DNA from: Kofleriaceae bacterium
GTDB lineage: Bacteria; Myxococcota_A; Polyangia; Haliangiales; Haliangiaceae
Direction of reading: 5' to 3'
Assembly: GCA_033763475.1 (NCBI GenBank)
Contig: JANRKM010000120.1
Span: 64,001-81,976, forward strand
DNA: 17,976 nucleotides
The position numbers and the translations under genes are program-made. This document shows positions 134-14,247 of the stretch, in pieces. Each line of letters begins with the position of its first letter. The first letter of the stretch is position 1. The notes under the pieces were generated by a model. It did no database searches, had not been told where the DNA came from, and saw only the letters and a list, made by a program, of their open reading frames with translations.

Positions 134-595
134 ATGCTGGCTCGCGCCTCCCCCATCCTCGTTGGTTCCGCCACCCTGCTGTTCGTCACGGCCTGCCCGG
201 CCGAGCCGTCTACCCCGCAGGTTCACGACGCGACCATCTCCACGATCGACGCCCCCGATCTCGGCGTCTTGGACTGCGCCGCCGTGTGCGAGCGCGCCTC
301 GATGTGCATCACCCAGGTAGGGCTCCGCTACGACGCGGCCGCGTGCGACGCGTTCTGCGGCGGCCTCAGCCGCGAGCGCATCACCGGCAGCTGCGGACGC
401 TGCCTGGTCGAGGCGGATTGCACGCAGGTCTACCGCGATCCCACCGCGCCCTTCTCCGTGGCGAATGGAAACCCGGGAGACTGCATCGTCGACTGTGGTC
501 TTGGTGAATGCAACCGCGACGGGGACTGCCCAGGCTCCATGCCGATCTGCGCGTACGACGCGGCCACAGCGCGCTTCCAATGCACCGACGCGTAG
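134..595 (+). CDS. Cys-rich secreted lipoprotein (hypothetical). Probable start is ATG 134 (MLARASPILVGSATLLFVTAC...); the track ORF starts at 23.
   Basis: The ORF 23..595 contains an internal Met followed by a hydrophobic stretch and a lipobox-like V-T-A-C, i.e. a signal peptidase II-type signal. The mature part has ~18 Cys in CxxC/CxxxC spacing. No recognisable enzymatic motif. High GC third-position bias is consistent with coding. Confidence 0.5.
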   Translation: MLARASPILVGSATLLFVTACPAEPSTPQVHDATISTIDAPDLGVLDCAAVCERASMCITQVGLRYDAAACDAFCGGLSRERITGSCGRCLVEADCTQVYRDPTAPFSVANGNPGDCIVDCGLGECNRDGDCPGSMPICAYDAATARFQCTDA

Positions 596-609
596 CGCTG
601 GGCGGTTTC

Positions 610-3600
610 ATGTCACTCCGCCGGTTGCTGCATCCGGCACAGACGCTTCCGATCGTCCATCGTAGATACGGTACGATCGAGCACGTGAGTGACCGAGCAG
701 GCGCCCCCTGCCTCGACGAGGAGTCCGTCCTTCGCTATCTCGACGGCCAGACCGACGAGGCGAGCGACGCCCACCTCGCCGACTGCGCGTCGTGTCGCTC
801 GCTGGTCCGGCTGGCCGCCGCGACGTCCCCGCGCGCGGTCGACACCGAGCAAGCCGCCACGCGCATCCGCCCATCGGTGCTCGGCGTGCGGTCGTCGCGC
901 GACGTGCTCTCCCCGGGCGACCGGCTCGGCCGCTACGAGATCGTTGCCCCGCTCGGCCAGGGTGGCATGGGGCTCGTCTACGAGGCGTTCGATCCCGAGC
1001 TCCAGCGCCATGTCGCGATCAAGCTCCTCCACGCATCGCGAGATCCGCGCATGCATGCGCAGCTCGTCCGCGAGGCGCGCGCGATCGCCCGCCTCGCACA
1101 TCCCCACGTCGTCGCCGTGCACGACGTCGGCGAGGATGGCGGTCGATCGTTCGTCGCGATGGAGCTCGTGCGGGGCGGCACCCTCGACGACTGGCGGCGC
1201 GCCCGCCCGCGATCCACGCGTGAGGTGCTCGCCATGTTCGCCGCCGCGGGCGCGGGTCTCGCGGCCGCGCACGCCGCAGGGCTCGTCCACCGCGACATCA
1301 AGCCCGCGAACGTGCTCGTCGGCGAGGACGGCCGGCCTCGCATCTCGGACTTCGGGCTCGCCATTCCCGACGCACCCGACGATCCGCACGCGCCCGTCGA
1401 AGCGCAGGCCGGGACGCCCGCCTACATGGCACCCGAGCAGCACGACGGCGGGGAGGTCGATGCGCGCGCCGATCAGTTCAGCTTCGCGGTGGCGCTGTAC
1501 GAGGCGCTCGCGGAGCGGCGGCCGTTTGGTGGCACCTCGCGGCGGGAGATCCGTGAGGCGATCGCGGCGGGCCCACCGCGCCTGCCCGCGCGCGTCCCGC
1601 GCCGCGTGAGCGCGGCGATCCACCGCGCGCTGCGCGAGGCGCCAGCGTCGCGGTTTCCCTCGATGAGCCCGCTGCTCGCCGCCCTTGCCCCGCCGCGGCG
1701 CCGCCTGGGACTGATCGCCGCGGGGAGTGCCGCGGCGATCGCGGCCGTCGCGATCGCTGGCGCGACGCGCGCGGGCGCTGCGAAGCCTTGCCTGCAGCTC
1801 GAACGACCACTCACCGCGGTCTGGGGACCGGCACAGCGCGCCAAGCTCGAGCGCGCGTTCACCACCGCGGGCGCACCGGCAGAGACGAGCGCGGCGGTCG
1901 CCGGGGCCCTCGACCGCTGGGCCGAGACCTGGAACGCGACGGCGATCGATGCCTGTCAGGCCGCGCAGGTTCGTCGCGAGCAGACACCCGCGCAGCAGGA
2001 GCTGCGCACCATCTGTCTGGACGAGCGGCTCGGCGAGCTGCGCGCGGTGACCGATCTGCTGGTCGCCGCGGACCGCGCGATCGTCGCCAGCGCGCACGCG
2101 ATGACGTCCTCGCTCGTGTCGCCGGCCGTATGCAACGAGCTCTCGACGCTCGGCGCGAAGGCGCCCCTGGTGCGCGGGTCGGCGCAGGAGCACGCGGTGA
2201 CCGCCCTCCGGCCGCGTCTCGCTTCCGTCCGTGCGACGCTGGCCGCTGGCGACGCCGCGAAGGCATACGCCCAGCTCGTCCCCCTGCGCGAGGAGATCGG
2301 ACGCACCGCGTATCGCCCGCTCGAAGCGGAGGCGGCCCTGCTCGCGGGCAGAGTCGCGCAGGCGCGTGGCCGGTTCGCCGAGGCCGAGACCGAGCTCGAG
2401 GCAGCCGTGCTCGCCGCGGAGGCGGGACGCGACGATCAAGCGGCCGCGGCGGCGTGGATCGCCTTGGCCCACGTGCGCGCCCGCGGACGCGGCGACCTCC
2501 GCCGGGCCACGGAGGCGCTCGCACACGCGGACGCGACGGTCGAGCGCCTCGGCGACGACCTCGAGGCCCTCGCCGCGCTCGCGTACGCGCGTGGCTCCAC
2601 CCTGCGGCAAAGCGGCGACTACCCGGGCGCCCGGGCCGCACTCGCGGAGGCCGTGCGTCGCTACGAGCGCGCGCGGGTCGATCGCACGCTCGAGCTGACG
2701 CAGGCCCAGCTCGATCTCGCGGGTGTGCTCGGCGCCCTCGGTGACCGGCAGGCAACGGCGACCGCCGAGGAGGCCCTCGCTCGCCGCCGCGCCGCGTTCG
2801 GTCCGGCTCACCCCGAGCTGGCGGCCGGGCTCGTCGTGGCCGCCTCGATCGCGGATCTCGAGCTCGATCCCACGCGCGCCACGCGCTACCTCGACGAGGC
2901 GGATGCGATCTACGCGCGCACCCTCGATGCGACGCATCCGCGACGCGCCCAGGCGCTGCAGATCCGCAGCAGTACCCTGATCTCGGCGGGCCGTCCCAGC
3001 GACGCCTTGGCCCCGGCGACCGCCGCACGCGACCTCCTCGCGCAGCACCAAGGCGAGGACTTCCCGGAGGTCGCGACGCTCGATGTCTGGATCGCCTTCG
3101 CGCGGTTCCATGCGGGAGATCACCTCGGTGCACGGGCCGACCTGGAGCGTGCGCTCGCCTTGCTCCAGCGAACGAAGGGCCCCGGCGCGCTGGAGGCCAT
3201 CAACGCGCGGGTCTTGCGCGTGCTCGTGGCGCATGCCGCCGGGGAGCAGGCTGCCGCTGAACGCGAGGCCAGGCAGGTGGTGGAAGAGGGGACGCGTGCG
3301 CTCGGTGATAACCACCCGCTGATGGCGAAGGCCTGGCGTGCGCTCGCGATCGTGATGACGGATCGCGCCCCCGGCGAGGCCCTCGCTGCGTACCGCCGCG
3401 TGCTGGCGATACGCGAGCAGCTCGGCGGGCCGATGCATCGCAGCGTCGCCGCCGCCGCGTACGAGCTCGGCGAGCACCTCCTCGAGCACGAACAGTTCGC
3501 CGACGCTGCGGTCCTGCTCGAGCGCGCGGTGACGATCGAGGAGCATCACGGCAGCGCCGGATCGGAGACGGCGCGCGGCGCCCGCATGCGCTGGGCCGAT

Positions 3601-3855
3601 GCGCTCCGCGCCCTCGCGCAGGAAGCGCGCGGTGTGGGCGTCCTCCAGGCACTGGTCACCGAGCTCGAACAGGCGACACCGCCTGACGATCTCCGGCTGC
3701 ACCAGGCCCGCCTGATGCTCGGCATCGACCTCGCGGCCACCGGCGGCGATCGTGCGCGTGCGCGTGCGCTGGTGCGCGCGGCGCGTGCGGCGCTGCGCGG
3801 GCGGGATCCGGACTCCGTGCGCATCGCCGACGCCTGGCTCCGCCGGCACCGCTGA
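610..3855 (+). CDS. Ser/Thr protein kinase (Hanks-type) with an N-terminal zf-HC2 (anti-sigma-like H-x3-C-x2-C) motif and a long C-terminal TPR/helical repeat region. The start is uncertain: ATG 610 or GTG ~688.
   Basis: Kinase subdomain motifs are read directly: GQGGMGLVYEA (Gly loop), VAIK (catalytic Lys), HRDIKPANVLV (catalytic loop), DFGLA, GTPAYMAPEQ. Upstream is LRYLDGQTDEASDAHLADCASCRSL, matching the YLDGEL...HLxxCxxC pattern of zinc-finger anti-sigma N-termini. Downstream is ~700 aa of Ala/Leu/Arg-rich helical repeats (TPR-like). The track ORF 508..3855 overlaps the previous gene, so an internal start is used. Confidence 0.85.
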   Translation: MSLRRLLHPAQTLPIVHRRYGTIEHVSDRAGAPCLDEESVLRYLDGQTDEASDAHLADCASCRSLVRLAAATSPRAVDTEQAATRIRPSVLGVRSSRDVLSPGDRLGRYEIVAPLGQGGMGLVYEAFDPELQRHVAIKLLHASRDPRMHAQLVREARAIARLAHPHVVAVHDVGEDGGRSFVAMELVRGGTLDDWRRARPRSTREVLAMFAAAGAGLAAAHAAGLVHRDIKPANVLVGEDGRPRISDFGLAIPDAPDDPHAPVEAQAGTPAYMAPEQHDGGEVDARADQFSFAVALYEALAERRPFGGTSRREIREAIAAGPPRLPARVPRRVSAAIHRALREAPASRFPSMSPLLAALAPPRRRLGLIAAGSAAAIAAVAIAGATRAGAAKPCLQLERPLTAVWGPAQRAKLERAFTTAGAPAETSAAVAGALDRWAETWNATAIDACQAAQVRREQTPAQQELRTICLDERLGELRAVTDLLVAADRAIVASAHAMTSSLVSPAVCNELSTLGAKAPLVRGSAQEHAVTALRPRLASVRATLAAGDAAKAYAQLVPLREEIGRTAYRPLEAEAALLAGRVAQARGRFAEAETELEAAVLAAEAGRDDQAAAAAWIALAHVRARGRGDLRRATEALAHADATVERLGDDLEALAALAYARGSTLRQSGDYPGARAALAEAVRRYERARVDRTLELTQAQLDLAGVLGALGDRQATATAEEALARRRAAFGPAHPELAAGLVVAASIADLELDPTRATRYLDEADAIYARTLDATHPRRAQALQIRSSTLISAGRPSDALAPATAARDLLAQHQGEDFPEVATLDVWIAFARFHAGDHLGARADLERALALLQRTKGPGALEAINARVLRVLVAHAAGEQAAAEREARQVVEEGTRALGDNHPLMAKAWRALAIVMTDRAPGEALAAYRRVLAIREQLGGPMHRSVAAAAYELGEHLLEHEQFADAAVLLERAVTIEEHHGSAGSETARGARMRWADALRALAQEARGVGVLQALVTELEQATPPDDLRLHQARLMLGIDLAATGGDRARARALVRAARAALRGRDPDSVRIADAWLRRHR

Positions 3856-3867
3856 GCCAGGCGCGGG

Positions 3868-3941
3868 CGCAAGAAATCGACGCGAGCCGCGCAAGATCCG
3901 GCGACGAGCTTCGTCAGGGGACACACCCCAGGAGCAATCCC
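3868..3941 (+). promoter_or_regulatory. Conserved upstream/leader element A (core CTTCGTCAGGGGACACACCCCAGGAG at 3909-3934, with GGAG Shine-Dalgarno 7 nt before ATG 3942).
   Basis: Near-identical to the region immediately upstream of the next gene (4796-4859). The shared core is CTTCGTCA[G/A]GGGACAC(A)CCCCAGGAG, plus similar CGCAAGA/CGCAAAAAC-containing sequence further upstream. Confidence 0.4.
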
Positions 3942-4787
3942 ATGTCACGCGTCGCTTTTTCCTATGCCGTTCCTTCGTTCGTGCTGCTCGCGAGCAGCCT
4001 GCTCAGCGCGGGCTGCCCGGCTCATGACGATTCCGAGCAGCCCCCCCTCGATTTCGCCTTCGTGAGCGAAGCAGACGTTCACATGGCCTTCAACGCGATG
4101 GACCTTCCGTACGTGCTCGCGTTCACGTCGCCCCACGCGGCCGACGGGAGAGCGTGTCCCGCCATCACGCAACGAAGCGGGGGATACCAGGTTCGAGGTG
4201 GCTGCGTCGACGAGGCAGGGACCCGGTACGAAGGGACGATCGACGTCGAGGTGGCCGTCGGATCCGGGGCCCCTCAGACGGTCGAGTACGACTTCGAGTT
4301 TGCCGACTTCAGCGAGGTCGGATTTACCGGGGACGGAACCCCATGGAGCTACACGCTCGATGGTCGGCTCGTCGGCGTGCAACGCAGCAGCGAGTGCGGG
4401 TACCCGGCACCCGATGTCCGCGTCGACGGACCGCTGTCGATCACGGTGGGGGGCGACGTGCGCTCGGGCTATGGAGGCTGGTTTCCCGGCGATGGAGGCG
4501 CGGTCTCGCTCGTCATTCACGACTATCAGTACGGTTGGAATGGCGACTGCGATCGGGTCGGGCTCACGGGGTCGGGCACCGTGGACGTGCTCGACCGCGG
4601 GCGCTTCCGCTTCGAGCTGGATTCCCTCGACGAAAAAACGTGCCGCAATGACCCCACCACCGGCGGCGCGCGCTTCTTCGGGGCTGACGAAGCGACGATC
4701 ACGTACGACGGTGCCACTGCGTGCGATGGGTGCATCCCGTACGTGACGAGCGGAGGTCAGGCCGGCTCGTTCTGCTGGCAGCCCTAA
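3942..4787 (+). CDS. Secreted lipoprotein, hypothetical (281 aa).
   Basis: N-terminus MSRVAFSYAVPSFVLLASSLLSAGC has the signal peptide plus lipobox LSAGC. GGAG RBS sits 7 nt upstream. Gly/Asp-rich mature region with several Cys. No recognisable catalytic motif. Confidence 0.6.
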   Translation: MSRVAFSYAVPSFVLLASSLLSAGCPAHDDSEQPPLDFAFVSEADVHMAFNAMDLPYVLAFTSPHAADGRACPAITQRSGGYQVRGGCVDEAGTRYEGTIDVEVAVGSGAPQTVEYDFEFADFSEVGFTGDGTPWSYTLDGRLVGVQRSSECGYPAPDVRVDGPLSITVGGDVRSGYGGWFPGDGGAVSLVIHDYQYGWNGDCDRVGLTGSGTVDVLDRGRFRFELDSLDEKTCRNDPTTGGARFFGADEATITYDGATACDGCIPYVTSGGQAGSFCWQP

Positions 4788-4795
4788 CCGCAATC

Positions 4796-4859
4796 TGCAC
4801 GCGCGAACGCAAAAACGCGGAGCGACCTTCGTCAAGGGACACCCCCCCAGGAGACACCC
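4796..4859 (+). promoter_or_regulatory. Conserved upstream/leader element B (core CTTCGTCAAGGGACACCCCCCCAGGAG at 4827-4853, with GGAG 6 nt before ATG 4860).
   Basis: Paralogous copy of element A at 3868-3941. Contains GAAC (4805-4808) and CGTC (4830-4833) at 21 nt spacing. This does not fit the canonical ECF spacing, so the promoter type is unassigned. Confidence 0.4.
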
Positions 4860-5615
4860 ATGCATCCCCGCGCTTTCGCCACGACGCCGAGCACGCCCCT
4901 ACCCCTCGAGGCCCCGATGCGCAGCCACCTTCTCGTCATCCTCTCGTGCATCGCCATCGCCGCCTGCGGCGCCGACGATCGCCGCGACGCGACCGCCCTC
5001 CCGCACCCCACCCCCACACCGCAGGGAGGCGCATCGCGATCGCGCCCCGCGCCTCCCCCGCCTGCGCTGCCCGCGCCCTCGCCCGCGCTGCCCGCGGCGA
5101 GCAGCGCCGAGCCGGATCGCGGTGGTTGTGCCGGCGAGGTCAACTATCCGTGCCCGGACGGCTTCGAGGACGGGTGCATCCGCCAGCGCACGACCGAACA
5201 CGTGTGTGTCGCCAAAGATGCCGAGGCGACCATTCCCTGCGATCGGCCGGCAACGCTGGGTTGCAAGAGCGGCATGCTCGACGCGTGCGCAGCGGCGCCG
5301 CCGTACGGCAAGCTCCACATCTGTGTCATCCCGGTGCCCAACCGCGCCGCCACCGCCACGCCGGCCAGCTCCGGCCTGTGGGCGCTACGCATCGAGTGCA
5401 GGAACGAGATCAAATACAGCTGCCCCTCGGGCCTCGAGAACGGCTGCATCGGGGCACGCACGACGTCCCACGTCTGCGTCGAATCAGGCGCCAAGGCGAC
5501 CGTGCCATGCGACCAGCCAGCCACGCTCGCCTGCAAGGACGGCATGGTCGACGCATGCACGACGTCGCCTCCGTTCGGGACGTTCCACGTGTGCGTGAAG
5601 CCGCGGGACGCCTGA
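4860..5615 (+). CDS. Secreted lipoprotein with two tandem 8-Cys modules (251 aa; alternative start ATG 4917, MRSHLLVILSCIAIAAC).
   Basis: Hydrophobic signal plus lipobox IAAC. A Pro/Ala-rich linker follows (PAPPPPALPAPSPALPAASS). Then come two homologous ~67 aa modules (VNYPCPDGFEDGCIRQRTTEHVCVAKDAEATIPCDRPATLGCKSGMLDACAAAPPYGKLHICV and IKYSCPSGLENGCIGARTTSHVCVESGAKATVPCDQPATLACKDGMVDACTTSPPFGTFHVCV). Confidence 0.6.
   Translation: MHPRAFATTPSTPLPLEAPMRSHLLVILSCIAIAACGADDRRDATALPHPTPTPQGGASRSRPAPPPPALPAPSPALPAASSAEPDRGGCAGEVNYPCPDGFEDGCIRQRTTEHVCVAKDAEATIPCDRPATLGCKSGMLDACAAAPPYGKLHICVIPVPNRAATATPASSGLWALRIECRNEIKYSCPSGLENGCIGARTTSHVCVESGAKATVPCDQPATLACKDGMVDACTTSPPFGTFHVCVKPRDA
5139..5609 (+). 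repeat. Intragenic tandem duplication (repeat 1 ~5139-5342, repeat 2 ~5407-5609) encoding the two 8-Cys modules.
   Basis: The nucleotide and protein similarity of the two blocks is visible by eye. Cys positions are fully conserved between copies. Confidence 0.7.
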
Positions 5616-5648
5616 GCCAGGTGCGCGTGCTTCGAGCAGCGCGCGTGC

Positions 5649-8600
5649 TCAGCGCCCCGGACCGACGAGGAGGTCGGCCATGCGTCCCGGGTGAGCGACG
5701 CCGAGCGCGAGGAGCTCCGCTCGCCGTGCGTCGACGGCTGCGCGATCCGCACGTAGCTCGGCGGCCCGGAGCCCCGAGGCGGCCGCGTAGGTGAGCATGC
5801 CCTGCGTGGACCACCCTCGGGCGGCGCGCTCGAACGCGGAGGCAGCGCGATCCCGGTCGTCACTCATGAGCGCGATCTGTGCCTGAAGCGACGCGACGCC
5901 CGGCGTGAGGACGTCGCCGTCGGCGAGCACCGCGATCCCCTCCTCGAGGACCGATCGCGCGAGGGCGACGTCGGCGGTGCCGGCGCGCCACGCCGACGCG
6001 GCTGCATGCGCGCGCAGCAAGGCGAAGGTTCCGCGCGTGAGCGGTACGAGGGACGCGAAGATCCGGTCGAAGGCCGGCCGCGCCTCACCTTCGATCCACG
6101 CGCAGCTCGCGGCGGGGGTCTCGTAGACGCGGATCGCCGTCTCCTGCAGCATCTTCATCGAGGCGAACAGATCGTGCTCCCCTCGCTCCCCGGTGGACGC
6201 CTCCTGGAGCCGGGCCCGAGCGCGGTCCGGCTGATCGGCGGCGAGGAGCACCCACACGCTCGTCGACTGGAGCCAGCGTTGCGCGTTGAGGTCCTGGCGC
6301 GCCGCCGCCTCCGAGATCCAACCGTCGAGGACCGCGAGGGCACGCGCGGGATTCGCCCCGCAATATGCGTACGCGGCCAGGAGCGGGACGCGCCCCATCG
6401 CACCGTCGAGCACCAGCGGTGGCGTGGCGTTCCAGCAGAGCCGCTGCGCCGCCTCGAGCGTCGCCGTCGCGTCCCCCACGGAGCCCGCGAACAGCTCGAC
6501 GACACCGCGCAACAAGGTGTGGCGAGCACGCTCCTGCGTGCCGCCGACGCGGGCGACGAGGGCTTCGGACGCGTCGAGCGCGGCGCGGAAGAACGGGTGC
6601 CGTGGATCTCGCTGCGCGTTCGACATGACGTAGAAGAACAGCGCGCGGAGGACGCGCAGCGGGTGCCCGGCCTCCAAGGCGAGCTCGAGGGCGCGGGCGC
6701 TGACGAAGGCCGAGCGGACGTCGTTCTGGTTCAAGGCCTGCGCGGTCGCGAGGAGCAGGTCGATCTGCCGGAGCAGGCGCGGCGCGATCGCGTCCGCGTC
6801 GCGCGGCTCGAAGGCGAAGCCGCGCACGACGAGGCGCGCGCCGATGTTGATCGAGCCGGCGACGGCGACGTAGGGGTCGGCGGGAAGCGCGAGGCCGACG
6901 GCGGCGAGGGCCTCCCCGATCAGCGCCATCCCCTCGGTGAGGCGGCCGCTGATCAACAGGTGCTCGCCGGCCGTCGCGCGGAGCTGGGAGGCCCAGCCCA
7001 CCCAACCACCGTCGCTGGCGAGCGTCGCCGCGGCGAGGCAGATCCTCCCTGACTCGGCGCGGTGCCCCGCCAGCGCCATTGCGTCCGCCCACTCGAGGTG
7101 CAGCGCGAGCGCATCCTCCCCGGCGCTGAGCTCCGCCGCGGCCGCGTAGGTGCGCGCGGCGCGCTCGAAGGCAAGCGCGCGGGCTGCCTCGCGCGCGGCG
7201 CGGTGCATCCACGTGCGCGCCGGGCCTTGTCTCCCTGCCTCGCGGTAGTGCGTCGCGAGCACGTGCGCCGGTGGGTTGCGCCGGCCCTCGAGGAACTCCG
7301 CGAGCTCCGCGTGCGCCGCGCGATAGCGCTCGGCCGACAGCGACGCCTCGACCGTCTCGCGGACGCGATCGTGATAGACGTCCATCAACGACTCCGCGTG
7401 GGTGCCCGTGCGAATCAGGCCTTGCTCGCGCAGCTCATCGACCACCTCGGGGCGCCACCCGTCGAAGCCTGCCGCCAGGCACCCCATGCTCTGAGGGAGC
7501 GGCATCGCCGAGAGCGCCACGATCTCGAGCAGGCGCCGCGCGTCGGCCGACACCTGGTCCAGGCTGCGCCGCAGGTTGTCGCCCAGATCTCCCGCCTGCC
7601 AGCCGGTGGCCCCGAGCATGCGCGCCAGCACGTAGGGGTGCCCGGCGGAGGCGGCCCACGCGGCGTCGGCGGAGATTCCGCGCTGCGCGCTGCGCTCCAC
7701 GAGGGACGCGACCGCCGCGCGGTCGAGCGGTGGGACCGCAAGCGTGCCGACGTCGATGGCATCGAACGTCGCAGCGCGGGACAGGAAGGCCTCGAGCGCG
7801 CCCGAGGTTTCGGTCGCGCGCACGCGGAGCGTCGCCAGGAACATCACGGAAGGTGCGCGCACGAGCACCTCGGCGAGCAGCGAGAACGTGTCCTCGCCGG
7901 CCCATTGCAGATCATCGAGGAAGATGATCACCGGCGCATCCGCGGCGACGCCGGCGAGTAACGCCGCGAGCGCATCCGTCGCGTGGCGCCGGATCTCGTG
8001 CGGGCTGTGCGCGCGCACCGGTGGCTCGGTCCCTCGGAGAACGGCGTCGAGCCGACGCAGGACGGGGAACATGAGGCTCAGCGCTTCGGCGTGCGCGGGC
8101 ACGACCGCGCGCACGTACGCCTCGTCGGCGTGCACGAGGTAGTTGCACAGGCTGTCTACGGCCGCGTCGAGCCCCTTGAAGGGGACGGCCTCGGCTTCGT
8201 GGCAACGTCCGTCGAACACGTGCGCACCTCGTGCGGCCGCGCGGCGGCAGAGCTCGCGCGCCATCATCGACTTCCCGATGCCAGGTGGACCCTCGACGAG
8301 GCACAGCTGGGTGCGGAGACGCGAGCGCGCCAGCGATGCCTCGAGCCACGCGAGCTCCGCGTCGCGGCCGATCAGCTCGACGTCGGGGCGGAGCTCTCCT
8401 CGCGGGGGTGCGCCGCGAAATGCCGCGAGGATCTCGTGCGCGGGTGGCCGGTGGTCCGGATCCGCCGCGAGCATCCGCATGGCCATCGCCGCGAGGTGCG
8501 CGGCCGGGCCGGAGGGAGCGTCGATCGGCGGCACGGGTGCGTGGACCTTCGCGCGCGCCATCGCGACCGGGTTGGTCATCCACGGTGGGCGCCCGGCGAT

Positions 8601-9230
8601 CGTTTCGTACAGCATGACGCCAACCGAGTACCAGTCGCTCGCGGTGACCGGCGCACCAAGGCCCTGCTCGGGTGCCATGTACAGCGGTGTGCCGCCGGAG
8701 ACCGTCGGACCTCGGCCGAGCGGCTCCCAGGCGAGGCCGAAGTCGAGGAGGACGACGCGCCCGCAGTCCTCGACCAGGACGTTGTTCGGCTTGACGTCGC
8801 GGTGCAACGTCGCGGCGCGGTGGAGCGCCTCGATCGCGGCGCCGAGCTGCGCAAAGGCCGACAGCGTGTGCTCGGGGACGCGCCGGAGGTACTCGTCGAA
8901 CGCGCGTCCTTCGACGAGCTCCATGCTGAAGTACCAGCGATCACCCTCGCTGAACAGCTCGTACAACTTCACGAGGTTCGGGTGGCGCACGCCGGCAACC
9001 GCGCGAAACTCGTTCTTGAACCTGTAGATCGAGTCCGGATCGTCGTGGCGCAACGCCTTCAGGGCCACCGTCGTGCCATAGCGACGATCGCGCGCCTCGT
9101 AGATGTCGCCGAAGGTCCCGCGTCCGAGGCGCCGCACGATCTCGTAGCGATCGAGGCGCGGCATCGACGGCGCGCGCAGCCGGGGACCTGCCGCCAGTTG
9201 TCCGATGAGCTCGTCGAGGTCCCGCGCCAA
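5649..9230 (-). CDS. Ser/Thr protein kinase fused to a P-loop NTPase (AAA/STAND-like) domain and a C-terminal TPR/helical domain (1193 aa).
   Basis: The N-terminal kinase motifs are YEIVRRLGRGTFGDIYEA, VALK, HRDVKPNNVLV, DFGLA, GTPLYMAPEQ. They are followed by LIGRDAELAWL...LVEGPPGIGKS (Walker A) and a Walker-B-like hydrophobic-DD (VIIFLDDLQWA). Then come ~600 aa of Ala/Leu-rich helical repeats. A possible alternative start is the internal MPRLDRYEIV. Confidence 0.85.
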   Translation of the reverse strand: MARDLDELIGQLAAGPRLRAPSMPRLDRYEIVRRLGRGTFGDIYEARDRRYGTTVALKALRHDDPDSIYRFKNEFRAVAGVRHPNLVKLYELFSEGDRWYFSMELVEGRAFDEYLRRVPEHTLSAFAQLGAAIEALHRAATLHRDVKPNNVLVEDCGRVVLLDFGLAWEPLGRGPTVSGGTPLYMAPEQGLGAPVTASDWYSVGVMLYETIAGRPPWMTNPVAMARAKVHAPVPPIDAPSGPAAHLAAMAMRMLAADPDHRPPAHEILAAFRGAPPRGELRPDVELIGRDAELAWLEASLARSRLRTQLCLVEGPPGIGKSMMARELCRRAAARGAHVFDGRCHEAEAVPFKGLDAAVDSLCNYLVHADEAYVRAVVPAHAEALSLMFPVLRRLDAVLRGTEPPVRAHSPHEIRRHATDALAALLAGVAADAPVIIFLDDLQWAGEDTFSLLAEVLVRAPSVMFLATLRVRATETSGALEAFLSRAATFDAIDVGTLAVPPLDRAAVASLVERSAQRGISADAAWAASAGHPYVLARMLGATGWQAGDLGDNLRRSLDQVSADARRLLEIVALSAMPLPQSMGCLAAGFDGWRPEVVDELREQGLIRTGTHAESLMDVYHDRVRETVEASLSAERYRAAHAELAEFLEGRRNPPAHVLATHYREAGRQGPARTWMHRAAREAARALAFERAARTYAAAAELSAGEDALALHLEWADAMALAGHRAESGRICLAAATLASDGGWVGWASQLRATAGEHLLISGRLTEGMALIGEALAAVGLALPADPYVAVAGSINIGARLVVRGFAFEPRDADAIAPRLLRQIDLLLATAQALNQNDVRSAFVSARALELALEAGHPLRVLRALFFYVMSNAQRDPRHPFFRAALDASEALVARVGGTQERARHTLLRGVVELFAGSVGDATATLEAAQRLCWNATPPLVLDGAMGRVPLLAAYAYCGANPARALAVLDGWISEAAARQDLNAQRWLQSTSVWVLLAADQPDRARARLQEASTGERGEHDLFASMKMLQETAIRVYETPAASCAWIEGEARPAFDRIFASLVPLTRGTFALLRAHAAASAWRAGTADVALARSVLEEGIAVLADGDVLTPGVASLQAQIALMSDDRDRAASAFERAARGWSTQGMLTYAAASGLRAAELRADRAAVDARRAELLALGVAHPGRMADLLVGPGR

Positions 9231-9355: not shown

Positions 9356-10393
9356 GTGATCGACATCGATGGTAGCCGCGGTGAAGGCGGCGGACAGATC
9401 CTGCGCACGTCGCTCGCGCTCTCCATGCTCACGGGCAAGGCGTTCGCCATGCGCAACATCCGCGCGGGCCGCGCCAAGCCCGGCTTGCGCCGGCAGCACG
9501 TCGCGTGCGTCGAGGCCGCGGCGCAGCTGTGTGGCGCGACCGTGCACGGCGCGAGCGTGAGCAGCAAGTACCTCGAGTTCACGCCCGGACCGATCAGCGC
9601 CCGCGAGCTCGCGATCGACATCGGCAGTGCCGGCGCTGCGTCGCTCGTCGTGCAGACGATCCTCGTGCCGGCGCTGGTCGCCGGGCATCCGCTCCGCGCC
9701 ACGATCAAGGGCGGCACGCACAATCCGATGGCGCCGCCGTTCGAGTTCCTCGACCGCGTGTTTCTCCCGCACCTCCGCGCGATGGGCGCGGCGGTCACGC
9801 TCACGCTCGATCGCTACGGCTTCGCGCCCGGCGATGCGCGCGCGACCGAGCACGGCCAGCTCACCCTCACCGTCGACACCAGCGTGCTCCGTCCCATCGA
9901 GCTCGTCGAGGTCGGCGAGGTGCGCGCGCGCCGCGTCACGGTGCTGTCGTCCCGCCTGCCCACGCACGTCGCCGAGCGCGAGCTGAAGGTGGTGCGCGAA
10001 CGCCTACCCGGTCAGCTCGAGGTCGACGTGCGGGACGTGCGTGCGCCGGCGATCGGGAACGTGCTCATGATCGAGCTCGAGCGCGCGGGAGGCGTCGAGC
10101 TGATCACGAGCTTCGGCGCGAAGGGCAAGCGCGCCGAGCTGGTCGCCGAGGAGGCCTGCACCAACGCCTGCGCGTTCCTCGACGCCAACGTGCCCGTCGG
10201 CGAGCACCTGGCGGACCAACTCCTGCTGCCGATGGCGATCGCGGGCGGCGGCCGCTACCGCTGCGCGCCGCTGTCGCTGCACGCGACGACCAACATCGTG
10301 ACCATCCAGCAGTTCCTGGATCTCCCGATCGAGGTCGCGACGCACCGCGACGCCGTGCTGGTGTCGGTGGGTTCCGCTACCCTCTCCGCATGA
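9356..10393 (+). CDS. rtcA: RNA 3'-terminal phosphate cyclase RtcA (GTG start).
   Basis: Strong similarity to the RtcA family is read directly: IDGSRGEGGGQILRTSLALSMLTGKAFAMRNIRAGRAKPGLRRQH, IGSAGAASLVVQTILVPAL, and the active-site region HLADQLLLPMAIAGGG. The length of 345 aa is typical. Confidence 0.9.
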   Translation: MIDIDGSRGEGGGQILRTSLALSMLTGKAFAMRNIRAGRAKPGLRRQHVACVEAAAQLCGATVHGASVSSKYLEFTPGPISARELAIDIGSAGAASLVVQTILVPALVAGHPLRATIKGGTHNPMAPPFEFLDRVFLPHLRAMGAAVTLTLDRYGFAPGDARATEHGQLTLTVDTSVLRPIELVEVGEVRARRVTVLSSRLPTHVAERELKVVRERLPGQLEVDVRDVRAPAIGNVLMIELERAGGVELITSFGAKGKRAELVAEEACTNACAFLDANVPVGEHLADQLLLPMAIAGGGRYRCAPLSLHATTNIVTIQQFLDLPIEVATHRDAVLVSVGSATLSA

Positions 10394-10754: not shown

Positions 10755-11405
10755 TTACTGCGAGCGCTCGAAGTGCACGATGTCGATCAGCACCGTCGCC
10801 GCGAACAAGAGCGCGCGTAGGTTGACGTCCTGCACCTTGTCGAAGCTGACCCAGAAGTTGTCGGCCTCGGTGAACATCTCCTTGAGCAGGCCGCTCCACT
10901 TCTTTTGCACGAGGCCCACCTCGGCCTCCGAGCCAGGCAGGCGGACCTGAAACGTCCACGGCTTGAAGAACGGCCCGAACAGCGTGGCCACCTCCTGCCC
11001 CTCCGGGCCCTCCACGATGTACTTGCGGCGGAACCAGGTCCACTTGCGCTGGATCGCGCCGATCAGGTTGCCCTGCGAGTCGCGCACCTCGAGACGGTGG
11101 AAGATGAAGCGGAACGGCCGCCGCAGCACGAGCATCGGGCGGTTCTGCGTGAGGTCCTCGACGTGCGAGGTGAACGGCCGGTACGCCTGGAGGAACACCC
11201 GCTTGATGAACGCGGAGAAGCCCGACCCCTGCTCCTCGACGTTGAACACCGGATTACCGAGCTCGTCGTAGACGACGTAGATGTTGCGGGCGTCGAACGA
11301 GGTCAGGATCTCGAGCCACTTCTTGCGCTGGCGAACCGAGAGCTTCTGCGGGCGCCCAAAAACAGCGACGTCTGCCGACGGTGACTTGACCAGCGAGCTG
11401 TCCAT
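10755..11405 (-). CDS. Phospholipid scramblase family protein (Scramblase/PF03803-like). The start is probably ATG 11405; the track ORF extends to 11453.
   Basis: The C-terminal TEADNFWVSFDKVQD matches the scramblase D-A-D-N-F-x-I-x-F Ca-binding signature. Overall beta-rich ~215 aa, with no signal peptide. Confidence 0.55.
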   Translation of the reverse strand: MDSSLVKSPSADVAVFGRPQKLSVRQRKKWLEILTSFDARNIYVVYDELGNPVFNVEEQGSGFSAFIKRVFLQAYRPFTSHVEDLTQNRPMLVLRRPFRFIFHRLEVRDSQGNLIGAIQRKWTWFRRKYIVEGPEGQEVATLFGPFFKPWTFQVRLPGSEAEVGLVQKKWSGLLKEMFTEADNFWVSFDKVQDVNLRALLFAATVLIDIVHFERSQ

Positions 11406-11429
11406 GCGGGCACAGCGTACACTCGTCGC

Positions 11430-12200
11430 GTGCTTGCCGTGCAGCGAACGCACAAGTTGCGCACCGACCGCGACTGGTTACCACCGAGCGTGTTGCGCAC
11501 GAGCCGCCTCCTTCGCACGGGCATGGTCGCGGGTGCGAGCGCGGCGGTCGTGGGCGCCGTCATCGCGGTGCCGGCGACGCTATTGCTCTGGAAGGGTCTC
11601 GTCCTCGGCGGGGCGGGCGCGGCGGTGGCCGGTGACCGCGCCGCGCGGACACTCCTCCGCCGCCAGGTCGCGCGCATGACGCGTGGCGAGATCGAGCTCG
11701 CCTCGGTCTCCGCGCGTGCCGAGGGTGAGCTCGTCGTCGTCCGCGGCACGGTCCAGACCGAGGCGCCGCTGCGCGGCGTGCTCGTCGAGCGCGAGGGCAT
11801 CTACCGCCGCATGATCCTCAAAGCGCGCGGCACCTGGGTGCACGAGGCCGCCGTCGACTTCACCCTTCTCGACACGGCCGGCAACTACATCCTCGTGCAG
11901 GCCGCCGGCGCGCGCTGGATCGTGCCCCCGCGCGAGCTTGTCACCTATCCCGCGACGCGGTTCCGCGGCGATCACGTGCCCGGAGAGCTACGCCAGCTCA
12001 CCGAGGGCCACTCCGAGCTCCTCGCCTTCGAGCAGGTGCTGCCCGTCGGTGCCAACGTCCAGGTCATCGGCTACAAGACCGCGAGCGCGGACGTCACGGG
12101 CGACGTCGTCGACTATCGCCTGCCGCCACAGCGCGCGACCTTGCGCTCGGGCCCCGACCTCCCGCTGGTGATCACCGCCATCGAAGACCTCGAGCGTTAG
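11430..12200 (+). CDS. Hypothetical protein with an N-terminal transmembrane segment (GTG 11430 or ATG 11523 start).
   Basis: Long ORF with coding-like GC3 bias. The hydrophobic segment is GASAAVVGAVIAVPATLLLWKGLVLGGAGAAV. No recognisable domain. Confidence 0.45.
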   Translation: MLAVQRTHKLRTDRDWLPPSVLRTSRLLRTGMVAGASAAVVGAVIAVPATLLLWKGLVLGGAGAAVAGDRAARTLLRRQVARMTRGEIELASVSARAEGELVVVRGTVQTEAPLRGVLVEREGIYRRMILKARGTWVHEAAVDFTLLDTAGNYILVQAAGARWIVPPRELVTYPATRFRGDHVPGELRQLTEGHSELLAFEQVLPVGANVQVIGYKTASADVTGDVVDYRLPPQRATLRSGPDLPLVITAIEDLER

Positions 12201-13338: not shown

Positions 13339-14247
13339 TCAGCCCGTCGGGGATTTCTGCCACGGCGGCGGATTCATCGACTTGCTCAGATGGTCGATGA
13401 ACAGGGCCAGGCGCGGCGGCAGGTTCTGCCGCGCCGCATACACCGCGTTGACGTCACCCGCCCGCAGCGACCACTCCGGAAGGATGCGGACCAGCTTCCC
13501 CATGCGGATGTCACACGCGACCATGAACTCGGTGACCATGCCGATCCCGCCTCCGGCATTGATCACGTCGACCACGGCCGACAGGTTGTTGCTCGCGAAC
13601 CGGCACGGGCGGCCGACCTCGTAGGTCTGCTCGCCGTTGACGAGCGTCCAGCTCTGGACGCGCGCGCTCGGGGTGAACAGCACCTTGTCGTGATCGTCGA
13701 GCTCCTCGACCGACGTCGGCGCTGGCCGCTTCGCCAGGTACGCCGGCGACGCGACGAGCACGCCTGCAACGGGCGCCAGCTTGCGCGCGATCAGCGTCGA
13801 CTCGGGCAACGGCCCGAACCGCACCGCCACGTCGAACCCTTCTTCGATCAGATCCACGATCCGGTCCGAGGCATCGAGCTCGACGTTGACGTCGGGATGC
13901 GCGGCCACGAACTCGGCGATGATGCCGCCGAGGTACTTCGTCGACAGGTCGATCGGCGCGGTGATCCTGAGCCGCCCGCGCGGCGTCGCCTGCATGTCGG
14001 TCACGACCTGCTCGGCCGCCGCGATATCCGAAACGATGCGCGCGGCGCGCTCGTAGTACGCCTCGCCGATGTCCGTCAGCGCCAGCTTGCGCGTCGTGCG
14101 CTGCACCAGTCGAACCCCGAGCCGCTCCTCCAGCTGAGCGAGCTTGCGGCTGACCGTGGACTTCGGAAGCCCGAGCTGCTCGGCGGCGCCGGTGAAGCTC
14201 TTGGTCTCGACAACCTTGGTAAAGACAACGATGTCATTGAGGTCCAT
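13339..14247 (-). CDS. LysR-family transcriptional regulator (302 aa).
   Basis: N-terminal wHTH MDLNDIVVFTKVVETKSFTGAAEQLGLPKSTVSRKLAQLEERLGVRLVQRTTRKLALT, followed by a LysR substrate-binding domain. Divergent to the downstream gene. Confidence 0.85.
   Translation of the reverse strand: MDLNDIVVFTKVVETKSFTGAAEQLGLPKSTVSRKLAQLEERLGVRLVQRTTRKLALTDIGEAYYERAARIVSDIAAAEQVVTDMQATPRGRLRITAPIDLSTKYLGGIIAEFVAAHPDVNVELDASDRIVDLIEEGFDVAVRFGPLPESTLIARKLAPVAGVLVASPAYLAKRPAPTSVEELDDHDKVLFTPSARVQSWTLVNGEQTYEVGRPCRFASNNLSAVVDVINAGGGIGMVTEFMVACDIRMGKLVRILPEWSLRAGDVNAVYAARQNLPPRLALFIDHLSKSMNPPPWQKSPTG

Follow-up and report, generated by a model that had tools for sequence, protein, structure and literature searches.

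A conserved two-block motif upstream of unrelated lipoprotein genes is a probable ECF-type promoter of a kinase-linked sigma factor regulon in myxobacteria

Introduction

Bacterial sigma factors of the extracytoplasmic function (ECF) family usually read promoters of a characteristic layout: the -10 element is built on (C)GTC, the -35 element is A-rich with AAC at its end, and the spacer is held at ~16 nucleotides (nt). Known examples are the promoters of sigma-W in B. subtilis (TGAAAC-N16-CGTA) and of sigma-E in E. coli (GGAACTT-N16-TCAAA). In myxobacteria, ECF sigma factors number in the dozens and Ser/Thr kinases up to the hundreds, and to our knowledge almost none of these has known targets. 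Here we analyze a short element that stands upstream of two adjacent lipoprotein genes, which we call lipo1 and lipo2, in a 17,976-nt stretch of DNA from a Kofleriaceae bacterium (GenBank assembly GCA_033763475.1, contig JANRKM010000120.1, positions 64,001 to 81,976; hereafter the window). The gene 5' of lipo1 encodes a Ser/Thr kinase, and homologues of this kinase led us to the same two-block motif in other myxobacteria (Table 1). From its fixed geometry and its company we conclude that both window elements are probably ECF-type promoters of a kinase-linked sigma regulon.

Ser/Thr-kinase-linked ECF sigma factors are an established class, comprising groups ECF43, ECF59-62, ECF217, ECF267 and ECF283, and the kinase-linked groups have been described as lacking anti-sigma factors (PMC7826278). 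Experimental work exists on two sigma/kinase pairs of group ECF43, namely EcfP/PknT from Vibrio parahaemolyticus and EcfK/PknS from Xanthomonas citri (PMC8999054, PMC8103513, PMC13147305). In ECF43 sigma factors, region 2.2 is without the acidic DAED motif and has to be phosphorylated (PMC8999054, PMC8103513). A further point of comparison is provided by the zinc-binding anti-sigma (ZAS) factors such as RsrA/RshA (PMC8999054).

Two copies of the element in the window

The first-pass annotation of the window had described the regions 5' of lipo1 and lipo2 as a near-identical element of ~60 bp, with GGAG 6-7 nt from each ATG, and had taken it for a shared promoter or leader module. In the window the core CTTCGTCA[G/A]GGGACAC has two copies only (A and B; Table 2), both on the + strand and each beginning 33 nt upstream of its ATG (3942 and 4860), and no further copy of the 16-mer CTTCGTCARGGGACAC was found in the window even when up to three mismatches were allowed. 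CGCAAGA (3890) and CGCAAAA (4808) stand at an equal offset in the two copies. The local alignment of A with B scores 49, compared with 18.0 +/- 2.6 for dinucleotide shuffles (maximum 33; 0 of 2000 reach 49), and every other 159-nt segment of the window scores <=32 against either copy. Because this alignment spans 3890-3958 and 4808-4876 (57 matches, 7 mismatches and 10 gap columns), the likeness extends ~17 nt, or ~6 codons, into both coding regions (MSRVAFS and MHPRAFA); over the ungapped 33-nt promoter core 24 of 33 positions are identical. Each gene has an AGGAG Shine-Dalgarno sequence at the distance annotated (Table 2). The claim of near-identity holds for a core of 16-24 nt and is overstated for the full ~60 bp, of which only two short blocks are conserved across genomes. 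Scanning genome contigs with the 16-mer gave at least 120 matches; those listed are chance matches, none of them carries the extended motif, and many lie in sequence coding for FVKGHGTENDF, probably dapF. A scan of viral contigs yielded 32 matches, likewise due to chance.

Conservation of the motif in related genomes

The loci of relatives were fetched with homologues of the window kinase (685-3855) as the anchor. In locus L153 the kinase gene is followed by a gene for a 268-amino-acid protein and then by a secreted-protein gene whose upstream region, TGCAAAACCGCGCGGCGAGTCTCGTCAAGGGG, contains the window motif, and pattern and matrix scans located the motif in five more loci (L154, L216, L217, L221 and L222), giving six other myxobacterial genomes (Table 1). 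The motif takes the form TGCAAAAC-N14-CGTCA, equally written as TGCAAA, 16 nt and CGTCA, and its -10 block is CGTCA(R)GG; in the real sites 8 nt separate GCAARA from CGA, as in TGCAAANNNNNNNNNNNNNNNNCGTCARGG. The eight sites, drawn from seven genomes, all contain GCAA and CGTC without variation, and in each of them exactly 16 nt separate the (T/C)GCAA(A/G) hexamer from CGTC. The -10 core is CGTCA in seven sites and CGTCT in one. The -35 block reads TGCAAAAC in sites C-F, TGCAAAAG in G and TGCAAACC in H; in copy B an AAAAAC is displaced by 1 nt, and copy A shows AAGAT and no AAC. Farther 5', beyond the -35 block, conservation is lost (2-10 of 18 positions identical), and the spacer positions C-14, G-11 and CGA at -7 to -5, common to sites A-D, are lost in E-H.

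Table 1. Kinase loci compared with the window, with the motif sites found in them
Locus	Source	Kinase identity to window	Site	Motif	CGTCA to start codon (nt)	Gene 3' of motif
Window	Kofleriaceae bacterium		A	CGCAAGAT-N14-CGTCAGGG	30	lipo1
Window	Kofleriaceae bacterium		B	CGCAAAAA-N14-CGTCAAGG	30	lipo2
L153	Kofleriaceae metagenome-assembled genome	46%	C	TGCAAAAC-N14-CGTCAAGG	34	200-205-aa secreted protein (orthologous in C, D, E)
L154	ENA contig	48%	D	TGCAAAAC-N14-CGTCAAGG	30	200-205-aa secreted protein (orthologous in C, D, E)
L216		43%	E	TGCAAAAC-N14-CGTCAGGG	15	200-205-aa secreted protein (orthologous in C, D, E)
L217		40%	F	TGCAAAAC-N14-CGTCTTGG	11	145-aa lipoprotein
L221		38%	G	TGCAAAAG-N14-CGTCATCC	43	Cys-rich 190-aa lipoprotein
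L222	Cystobacter fuscus CP043492	36%	H	TGCAAACC-N14-CGTCAGGA	56	512-aa lipoprotein
L218	Kofleriaceae	38%				
L220	Kofleriaceae	36%				

The motif is enriched at these loci. For the pattern GCAA[AG]A-N15-CGTC, drawn from the window copies alone, Markov simulations predict 0.6 matches in 128.5 kb of other kinase loci, where 7 are observed. The 146.5 kb of kinase loci hold six occurrences of TGCAAA-N16-CGTC, each in a different genome, compared with a single occurrence in 1.66 Mb of unrelated fetched loci and none in 677 kb of unrelated high-GC loci (the window DNA is itself high-GC). In the reverse direction, when a two-block matrix built from sites C-H only is run over the 35,894 positions of the window, copy B comes out first and copy A fifth. 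Every site lies directly 5' of a gene for a signal-peptide protein or lipoprotein and within ~3 kb of the kinase gene. A search for further occurrences, one of the checks that had been proposed with the first-pass annotation, therefore extends the element to six other genomes.

Could the conserved object be an RNA leader rather than a promoter? A structured or factor-bound 5' untranslated region had been among the three mechanisms first offered, and it would take the form of a hairpin that sequesters the Shine-Dalgarno sequence (CUUC...GGAG, with an inner GGGG-loop-CCCC), a thermosensor, or a site for a small RNA or a CsrA-type protein. The minimum-energy fold of copy A does pair GCUUC with GGAGC around a GGGG/CCCC hairpin, and GGA motifs are present in the core and the Shine-Dalgarno sequence of both window copies. 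These folds are no better than those of shuffled sequences, however: the 46-nt leaders give z = -0.6 and +0.1, and the full regions z = -1.3 and -0.5. Rfam at E <= 10 returns only a spurious 12-bit snoRNA match on the opposite strand. The C-run that would form the hairpin is missing from sites D-H, and in sites E and F the start codon follows CGTCA at 15 and 11 nt, which leaves no room for a leader. We have therefore rejected the hairpin and anti-Shine-Dalgarno idea and regard a leader-based explanation in general as very improbable: with a start-codon distance that varies from 11 to 56 nt and a C-run/hairpin absent from D-H, conservation tracks promoter geometry and not the leader. Among the mechanisms first offered, the ECF-type promoter is the one that the data favor.

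The sigma factor and kinase beside the motif

A gene for a protein of 230-275 amino acids lies beside the kinase gene in all six motif-bearing loci outside the window, and its products are mutually homologous (41-70% identity). These products are sigma factors of NCBIfam TIGR03001, named 'RNA polymerase sigma-70 factor, Myxococcales family 1' and belonging to the ECF superfamily: the proteins of L153, L154 and L217, as well as that of L218, score above its curated cutoff (180.7 vs 154.6 bits). They also pass the cutoff of the ECF superfamily model TIGR02937 (sigma70-ECF), and the protein profile aligns over sigma2-sigma4 of solved ECF sigma factors. In the relatives (L153, L154, L216, L217, L218, L221 and L222), though not in the window, the sigma gene adjoins a Hanks-type Ser/Thr kinase gene, and the motif is present in 6 of these 7 loci. 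Since the motif recurs beside homologous kinase/sigma gene pairs in six other genomes, it is most likely the promoter read by the alternative sigma factor of these pairs, and because the parts that are conserved are exactly those that a sigma factor reads, we read both window elements as ECF-type promoters. The shared promoter module that had been proposed from the window sequence is supported by this recurrence, in which the motif keeps an invariant spacing beside homologous kinase genes and each genome adds an ECF-family sigma gene. No sigma-70-type promoter (TTGACA-N16-18-TATAAT-like) was found on either strand between 3700 and 5800, nor a + strand terminator in either intergenic region.

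A bipartite element could also serve as the operator of a conventional transcription factor, an activator or a repressor. The kinase might then act on this factor too, or the motif would keep company with the sigma and kinase genes by mere coincidence. Sequence alone cannot tell a bipartite operator from a promoter, the spacer positions common to A-D are unusual for a pure sigma site, and the window itself has yielded no sigma gene (see below). Yet the two blocks have neither dyad nor direct-repeat symmetry, and the shared spacer positions are lost in E-H while the spacing of the blocks stays exact. Furthermore, the ECF-family sigma factor alone among DNA-binding proteins has its gene next to the motif consistently, and a CGTC -10 with a 16-nt spacer is the standard ECF layout. 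We consider an operator improbable and retain the ECF-type promoter as the preferred explanation.

The kinase of the module has a distinctive architecture. The window kinase, identical to NCBI protein P0003 (1056 amino acids), consists of an N-terminal ZAS-like HxxxCxxC motif (HLADCASC at residues 30-37), a Hanks kinase domain and C-terminal TPR repeats (~600 amino acids). The pattern C..E...H(L/V)xxCxxC is found near the N-terminus in 9 of 9 kinases examined. Pfam zf-HC2 (PF13490) gives the window kinase N-terminus 12.7 bits, below the cutoff of 22.2 (E 0.14), and gives the homologue P0010 28.8 bits. The first-pass annotation had linked the element to both kinases that flank the lipoprotein genes; the upstream kinase indeed anchors the conserved module, whereas involvement of the second (5649-9230) is not supported. 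A kinase-AAA_16 gene is present in L222 at 15951-20102, two genes after the motif (14096-14122); the second window kinase was considered as its ortholog and discarded, as only the kinase domain aligns (35% identity).

The lipoprotein genes and the history of their 5' ends

The products of lipo1 and lipo2 have no detectable similarity to each other (BLASTP E = 1.3) and their homologues form different families, which speaks against tandem paralogous lipoprotein genes and agrees with the first-pass annotation that this is no simple gene duplication. The lipo1 product has no Pfam or NCBIfam match; its family consists of homologues of 270-300 amino acids with 34-39% identity (full HMMER), and at the locus of one of these (L223) neither the motif nor the kinase or sigma gene was found nearby. 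The possibility that lipo1 is a diverged copy of the relatives' 200-amino-acid secreted protein was rejected (hhalign probability 2%). A word-indexed search, which returned self-matches only, had suggested that lipo1 and lipo2 are ORFans; this was wrong, as BLAST against the fetched loci and full HMMER detect homologues at 35-50% identity, and for such low-complexity, fast-evolving secreted proteins ORFan calls from a word-indexed search alone are unreliable.

The true start of lipo2 is ambiguous because a canonical lipoprotein signal peptide begins only at M20 (ATG 4917), after 19 codons (MHPRAFATTPSTPLPLEAP), and this second ATG has its own GAGG 5 nt upstream. Residues 23-248 of lipo2 are homologous to Cys-rich lipoproteins of L154 (124 amino acids; E 4e-23) and L216 (E 7e-19). 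In both of these loci the motif heads a predicted operon with the 200-amino-acid secreted protein first and the lipo2-homologous lipoprotein last. Codons 1-7 of lipo2 resemble the start of the 200-amino-acid gene of L154 (MHPRAFA vs MIRLAFA), with CGCTTTCGCCA identical in codons 4-8; B and D also share the position of the Shine-Dalgarno sequence and the ATG, and the start MxR.AF(A/S) is common to A, B and D. In the simplest history, copy B would be orthologous to the promoter and first codons of a 200-amino-acid gene that has been lost, now abutting lipo2, so that the annotated lipo2 start (ATG 4860) may be a relic of rearrangement, and copy A would be a paralog of this 5' module in front of the unrelated lipo1 family. 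The extra similarity of A and B (C-run, Shine-Dalgarno sequence and first codons) would then stem from common descent of a module comprising the promoter and the 5' end.

Such a history raises the question of whether the similarity is anything but the residue of a local duplication or rearrangement of a gene 5' end, with no regulation in common today. The likeness of A and B running through the Shine-Dalgarno sequence, the ATG and ~6 codons, the start shared by A, B and D, and the odd 19-codon extension of lipo2, which fits a rearrangement scar, are all as this explanation would have them. Common descent, which is part of our own interpretation, does not however explain why conservation is specific to the blocks: these and their spacing are kept in seven genomes with kinases 35-48% identical, while the flanks are randomized. 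In addition, over the 33-nt core copy B matches site D, from a genome whose kinase is 48% identical, at 28 of 33 positions, which exceeds its match to copy A and argues for selection over a recent neutral copy. This comparison of conservation with recent local duplication was the second check proposed at the outset, and it leaves the relic explanation with little credence.

As for the lipo2 protein itself, it contains two tandem repeats of ~70 amino acids with the same Cys pattern (residues ~85-158 and 177-248; window 5100-5600), and short direct repeats at 5052-5096 code for a Pro/Ala-rich linker. Homologues with a single repeat occur in L154 (236-610, - strand) and L216 (8515-9216). In L216 the ortholog of the 200-amino-acid gene (7694-8297) is split: the open reading frame from ATG 7694 (MTKTPLLILFTLSAV) stops after 53 codons and the remainder is called from 7809, owing either to a frameshift in a long-read assembly or to a pseudogene.

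Proposed mechanism and points against it

We propose that RNA polymerase carrying a Myxococcota-specific ECF-family sigma factor (TIGR03001) reads the promoter, and that the protein uniting the ZAS-like motif, kinase domain and TPR repeats presumably controls this sigma factor, by sequestration through its N-terminal anti-sigma-like domain, by phosphorylation, or by both. If the geometry typical of ECF promoters applies, transcripts would begin a few bases 3' of CGTC, at ~3921-3924 for copy A and ~4839-4842 for copy B, which would yield short leaders with an ordinary AGGAG ribosome site. The outputs of the system would be the secreted proteins and lipoproteins encoded beside the regulators, and in the window genome the promoter, leader and first few codons may behave as a portable 5' module.

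Several observations weigh against this interpretation. The cognate sigma factor of copies A and B is out of view, as no TIGR03001-like sigma gene was found in the window (six-frame hmmsearch, best E 0.4; tblastn). ECF sigma factors usually regulate their own genes, but the sigma genes here give no sign of this, as the motif was not found 5' of them. Nor was it found in kinase loci L218 and L220; L218 does have a sigma gene, and its sequence 3' of that gene ends at the contig end. Because C, D and E are orthologous sites, the eight sites amount to fewer than eight independent observations. Lastly, the window copies deviate from the cross-genome -35 consensus, with C for T at the first position and, in copy A, no AAC.

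A bolder version of this proposal is possible, but we hold it doubtful. Here TGCAAAAC-N14-CGTCA would be the recognition sequence of the whole TIGR03001 family, and the partner of the sigma factor would be a previously undescribed cytoplasmic protein in which a zinc-finger anti-sigma domain, a Hanks kinase and a TPR sensor couple sigma release and phosphorylation in one polypeptide. The 5' cassette would then recombine, recruiting unrelated lipoprotein genes such as lipo1 and lipo2. In the papers searched we found no description of TIGR03001, of its promoter, of zf-HC2 joined to Pkinase or of anti-sigma/kinase fusions in myxobacteria, an absence that is no proof of novelty.

Other features of the window

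The coordinates of the window features are given in Table 2. Window proteins are identical to NCBI entries with the locus tags SFX73_15020 and SFX73_15025, from a Kofleriaceae metagenome-assembled genome and an 81,976-nt contig. The kinase gene stops 34 nt before the -35 block of copy A. The Cys-rich lipoprotein gene at 134-595 has a CAGGAG Shine-Dalgarno sequence, and no copy of the motif was found in the 133 nt between it and the window edge. Farther along the window lie genes for RtcA (9356-10393), DUF423, a scramblase-family protein, MscS and LysR. The scramblase-family gene (10755-11453, - strand) adjoins those for DUF423 and RtcA; although the genome is bacterial, the gene matches Pfam Scramblase strongly (PF03803, E 4e-41).

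Table 2. Coordinates of features in the window
Feature	Position	Strand	Remarks
Cys-rich lipoprotein gene	134-595	+	Begins MLARASPILVGSATLLFVTAC; just 5' of kinase gene
Ser/Thr kinase gene	685-3855	+	1056 aa; GTG start; Pfam Pkinase + TPR_12/TPR_10
Copy A, -35-like block CGCAAGAT	3890-3897	+	Consensus TGCAAAAC; aligned column block, GCAA invariant in 8/8 sites
Copy A, 16-mer of the first-pass annotation, CTTCGTCAGGGGACAC	3909-3924	+	
Copy A, -10-like block CGTCAGGG	3912-3919	+	CGTC begins 16 nt after hexamer CGCAAG
lipo1 Shine-Dalgarno AGGAG	3930-3934	+	7 nt before ATG 3942
lipo1	3942-4787	+	281 aa; Cys-containing lipoprotein; signal peptide end LSAGC
Copy B, -35-like block CGCAAAAA	4808-4815	+	
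Copy B, 16-mer of the first-pass annotation, CTTCGTCAAGGGACAC	4827-4842	+	
Copy B, -10-like block CGTCAAGG	4830-4837	+	
lipo2 Shine-Dalgarno AGGAG	4849-4853	+	6 nt before ATG 4860
lipo2	4860-5615	+	251 aa; Cys-rich lipoprotein; two internal repeats; lipobox IAAC after M20
Second kinase gene	5649-9230	-	Pkinase + AAA_16/STAND NTPase; convergent with lipo2

Some smaller observations concern the surroundings of the motif. The sequence GCGCAAGA occurs twice, 22 nt apart, 5' of lipo1 (3867-3874 and 3889-3896, + strand), its second occurrence being the -35 block. Sites A, E and F have an AGAAA in common at -40, which could be an upstream element or due to chance. An AT-rich, UP-like region 5' of the -35 block is only slightly enriched (0.33-0.55 vs 0.29-0.33, in 7 of 8 sites), and we do not rely on it. 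The second-best matrix match in the window (10909-10880, - strand) reads TGCAAAAG-N14-GCTCAAGG, with a perfect -35 and GCTCA in place of CGTCA at the -10; it lies inside the scramblase-family coding region and is probably due to chance. In L220 a Cys-rich lipoprotein gene (5614-6411) directly follows the kinase gene without a sigma gene, as in the window, and no motif was found upstream of it.

Implications

Tying the motif to one conserved sigma/kinase module would allow the regulon of that module to be predicted directly in any genome, and it supplies promoter-reporter constructs with which to find the signal sensed by the TPR-kinase. It would also account for the shared 5' end of unrelated lipoprotein genes and for the 19-codon extension of lipo2. 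A kinase fused to an anti-sigma-like zinc motif, if functional, would differ from the only characterized route from kinase to ECF sigma factor, the phosphorylation of a DAED-less sigma. Both corollaries, the anti-sigma/kinase fusion and the portable 5' module, are predictions from sequence.

Comparison with known systems

The module resembles the ECF43 systems in that an ECF-family sigma gene is conserved beside a Hanks-type kinase gene and that its predicted local targets are envelope-related. It differs from them in the sigma factor, which in the relatives appears to keep acidic residues (V-D-D, A-D-E, V-E-E) at the DAED position: opposite DAQEAQD of the solved ECF sigma 8z6g, these proteins have (G)FVDD, ANADD, FADE and FVEE, a tentative assignment that comes from a low-scoring alignment. 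The kinase differs as well, being cytoplasmic, with an N-terminal ZAS-like motif and C-terminal TPRs. Since HxxxCxxC is present in all nine kinases and zf-HC2 exceeds its cutoff in P0010, these loci appear to depart from the description of kinase-linked groups as having no anti-sigma factor in the locus.

Like the ZAS factors, the kinase carries an N-terminal HxxxCxxC in a protein encoded beside the sigma gene, and in P0010 this region is recognized as zf-HC2. Unlike them, it has the motif fused to a full kinase domain and ~600 amino acids of TPR, zf-HC2 is sub-threshold in the window kinase, and sigma binding is putative. TIGR03001 is a protein family and not a DNA element, and no member of it is encoded in the window.

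A likeness to the DNA of the window is found in the 'upstream homology box' of Borrelia (ospE/ospF/elp/erp), where unrelated lipoproteins reportedly share a promoter, a leader and the start of the signal peptide. There as here, unrelated lipoprotein genes have a common 5' module that includes the promoter, the Shine-Dalgarno sequence and the first codons, which suggests recombination of 5' modules; the organism, the type of sigma factor and the scale differ, with ~7 codons shared and two copies in the present case.

The element itself has its counterpart in ECF promoters. The -35 TGCAAAAC is not GGAAC or TGAAAC, and the 14 nt from AAC to CGTC fall at the short end; the motif is not seen 5' of the sigma gene, and the window copies have no adjacent sigma gene. 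In common with ECF promoters, the motif has two short blocks at a fixed distance of ~16 nt, the -10 being (C)GTC-based and the -35 A-rich, with AAC at its end in most sites, and in the relatives it adjoins sigma and regulator genes and heads genes for envelope and secreted proteins. Overall, this comparison supports placing the element in a known class, as a predicted ECF-type promoter of a kinase-associated sigma module.

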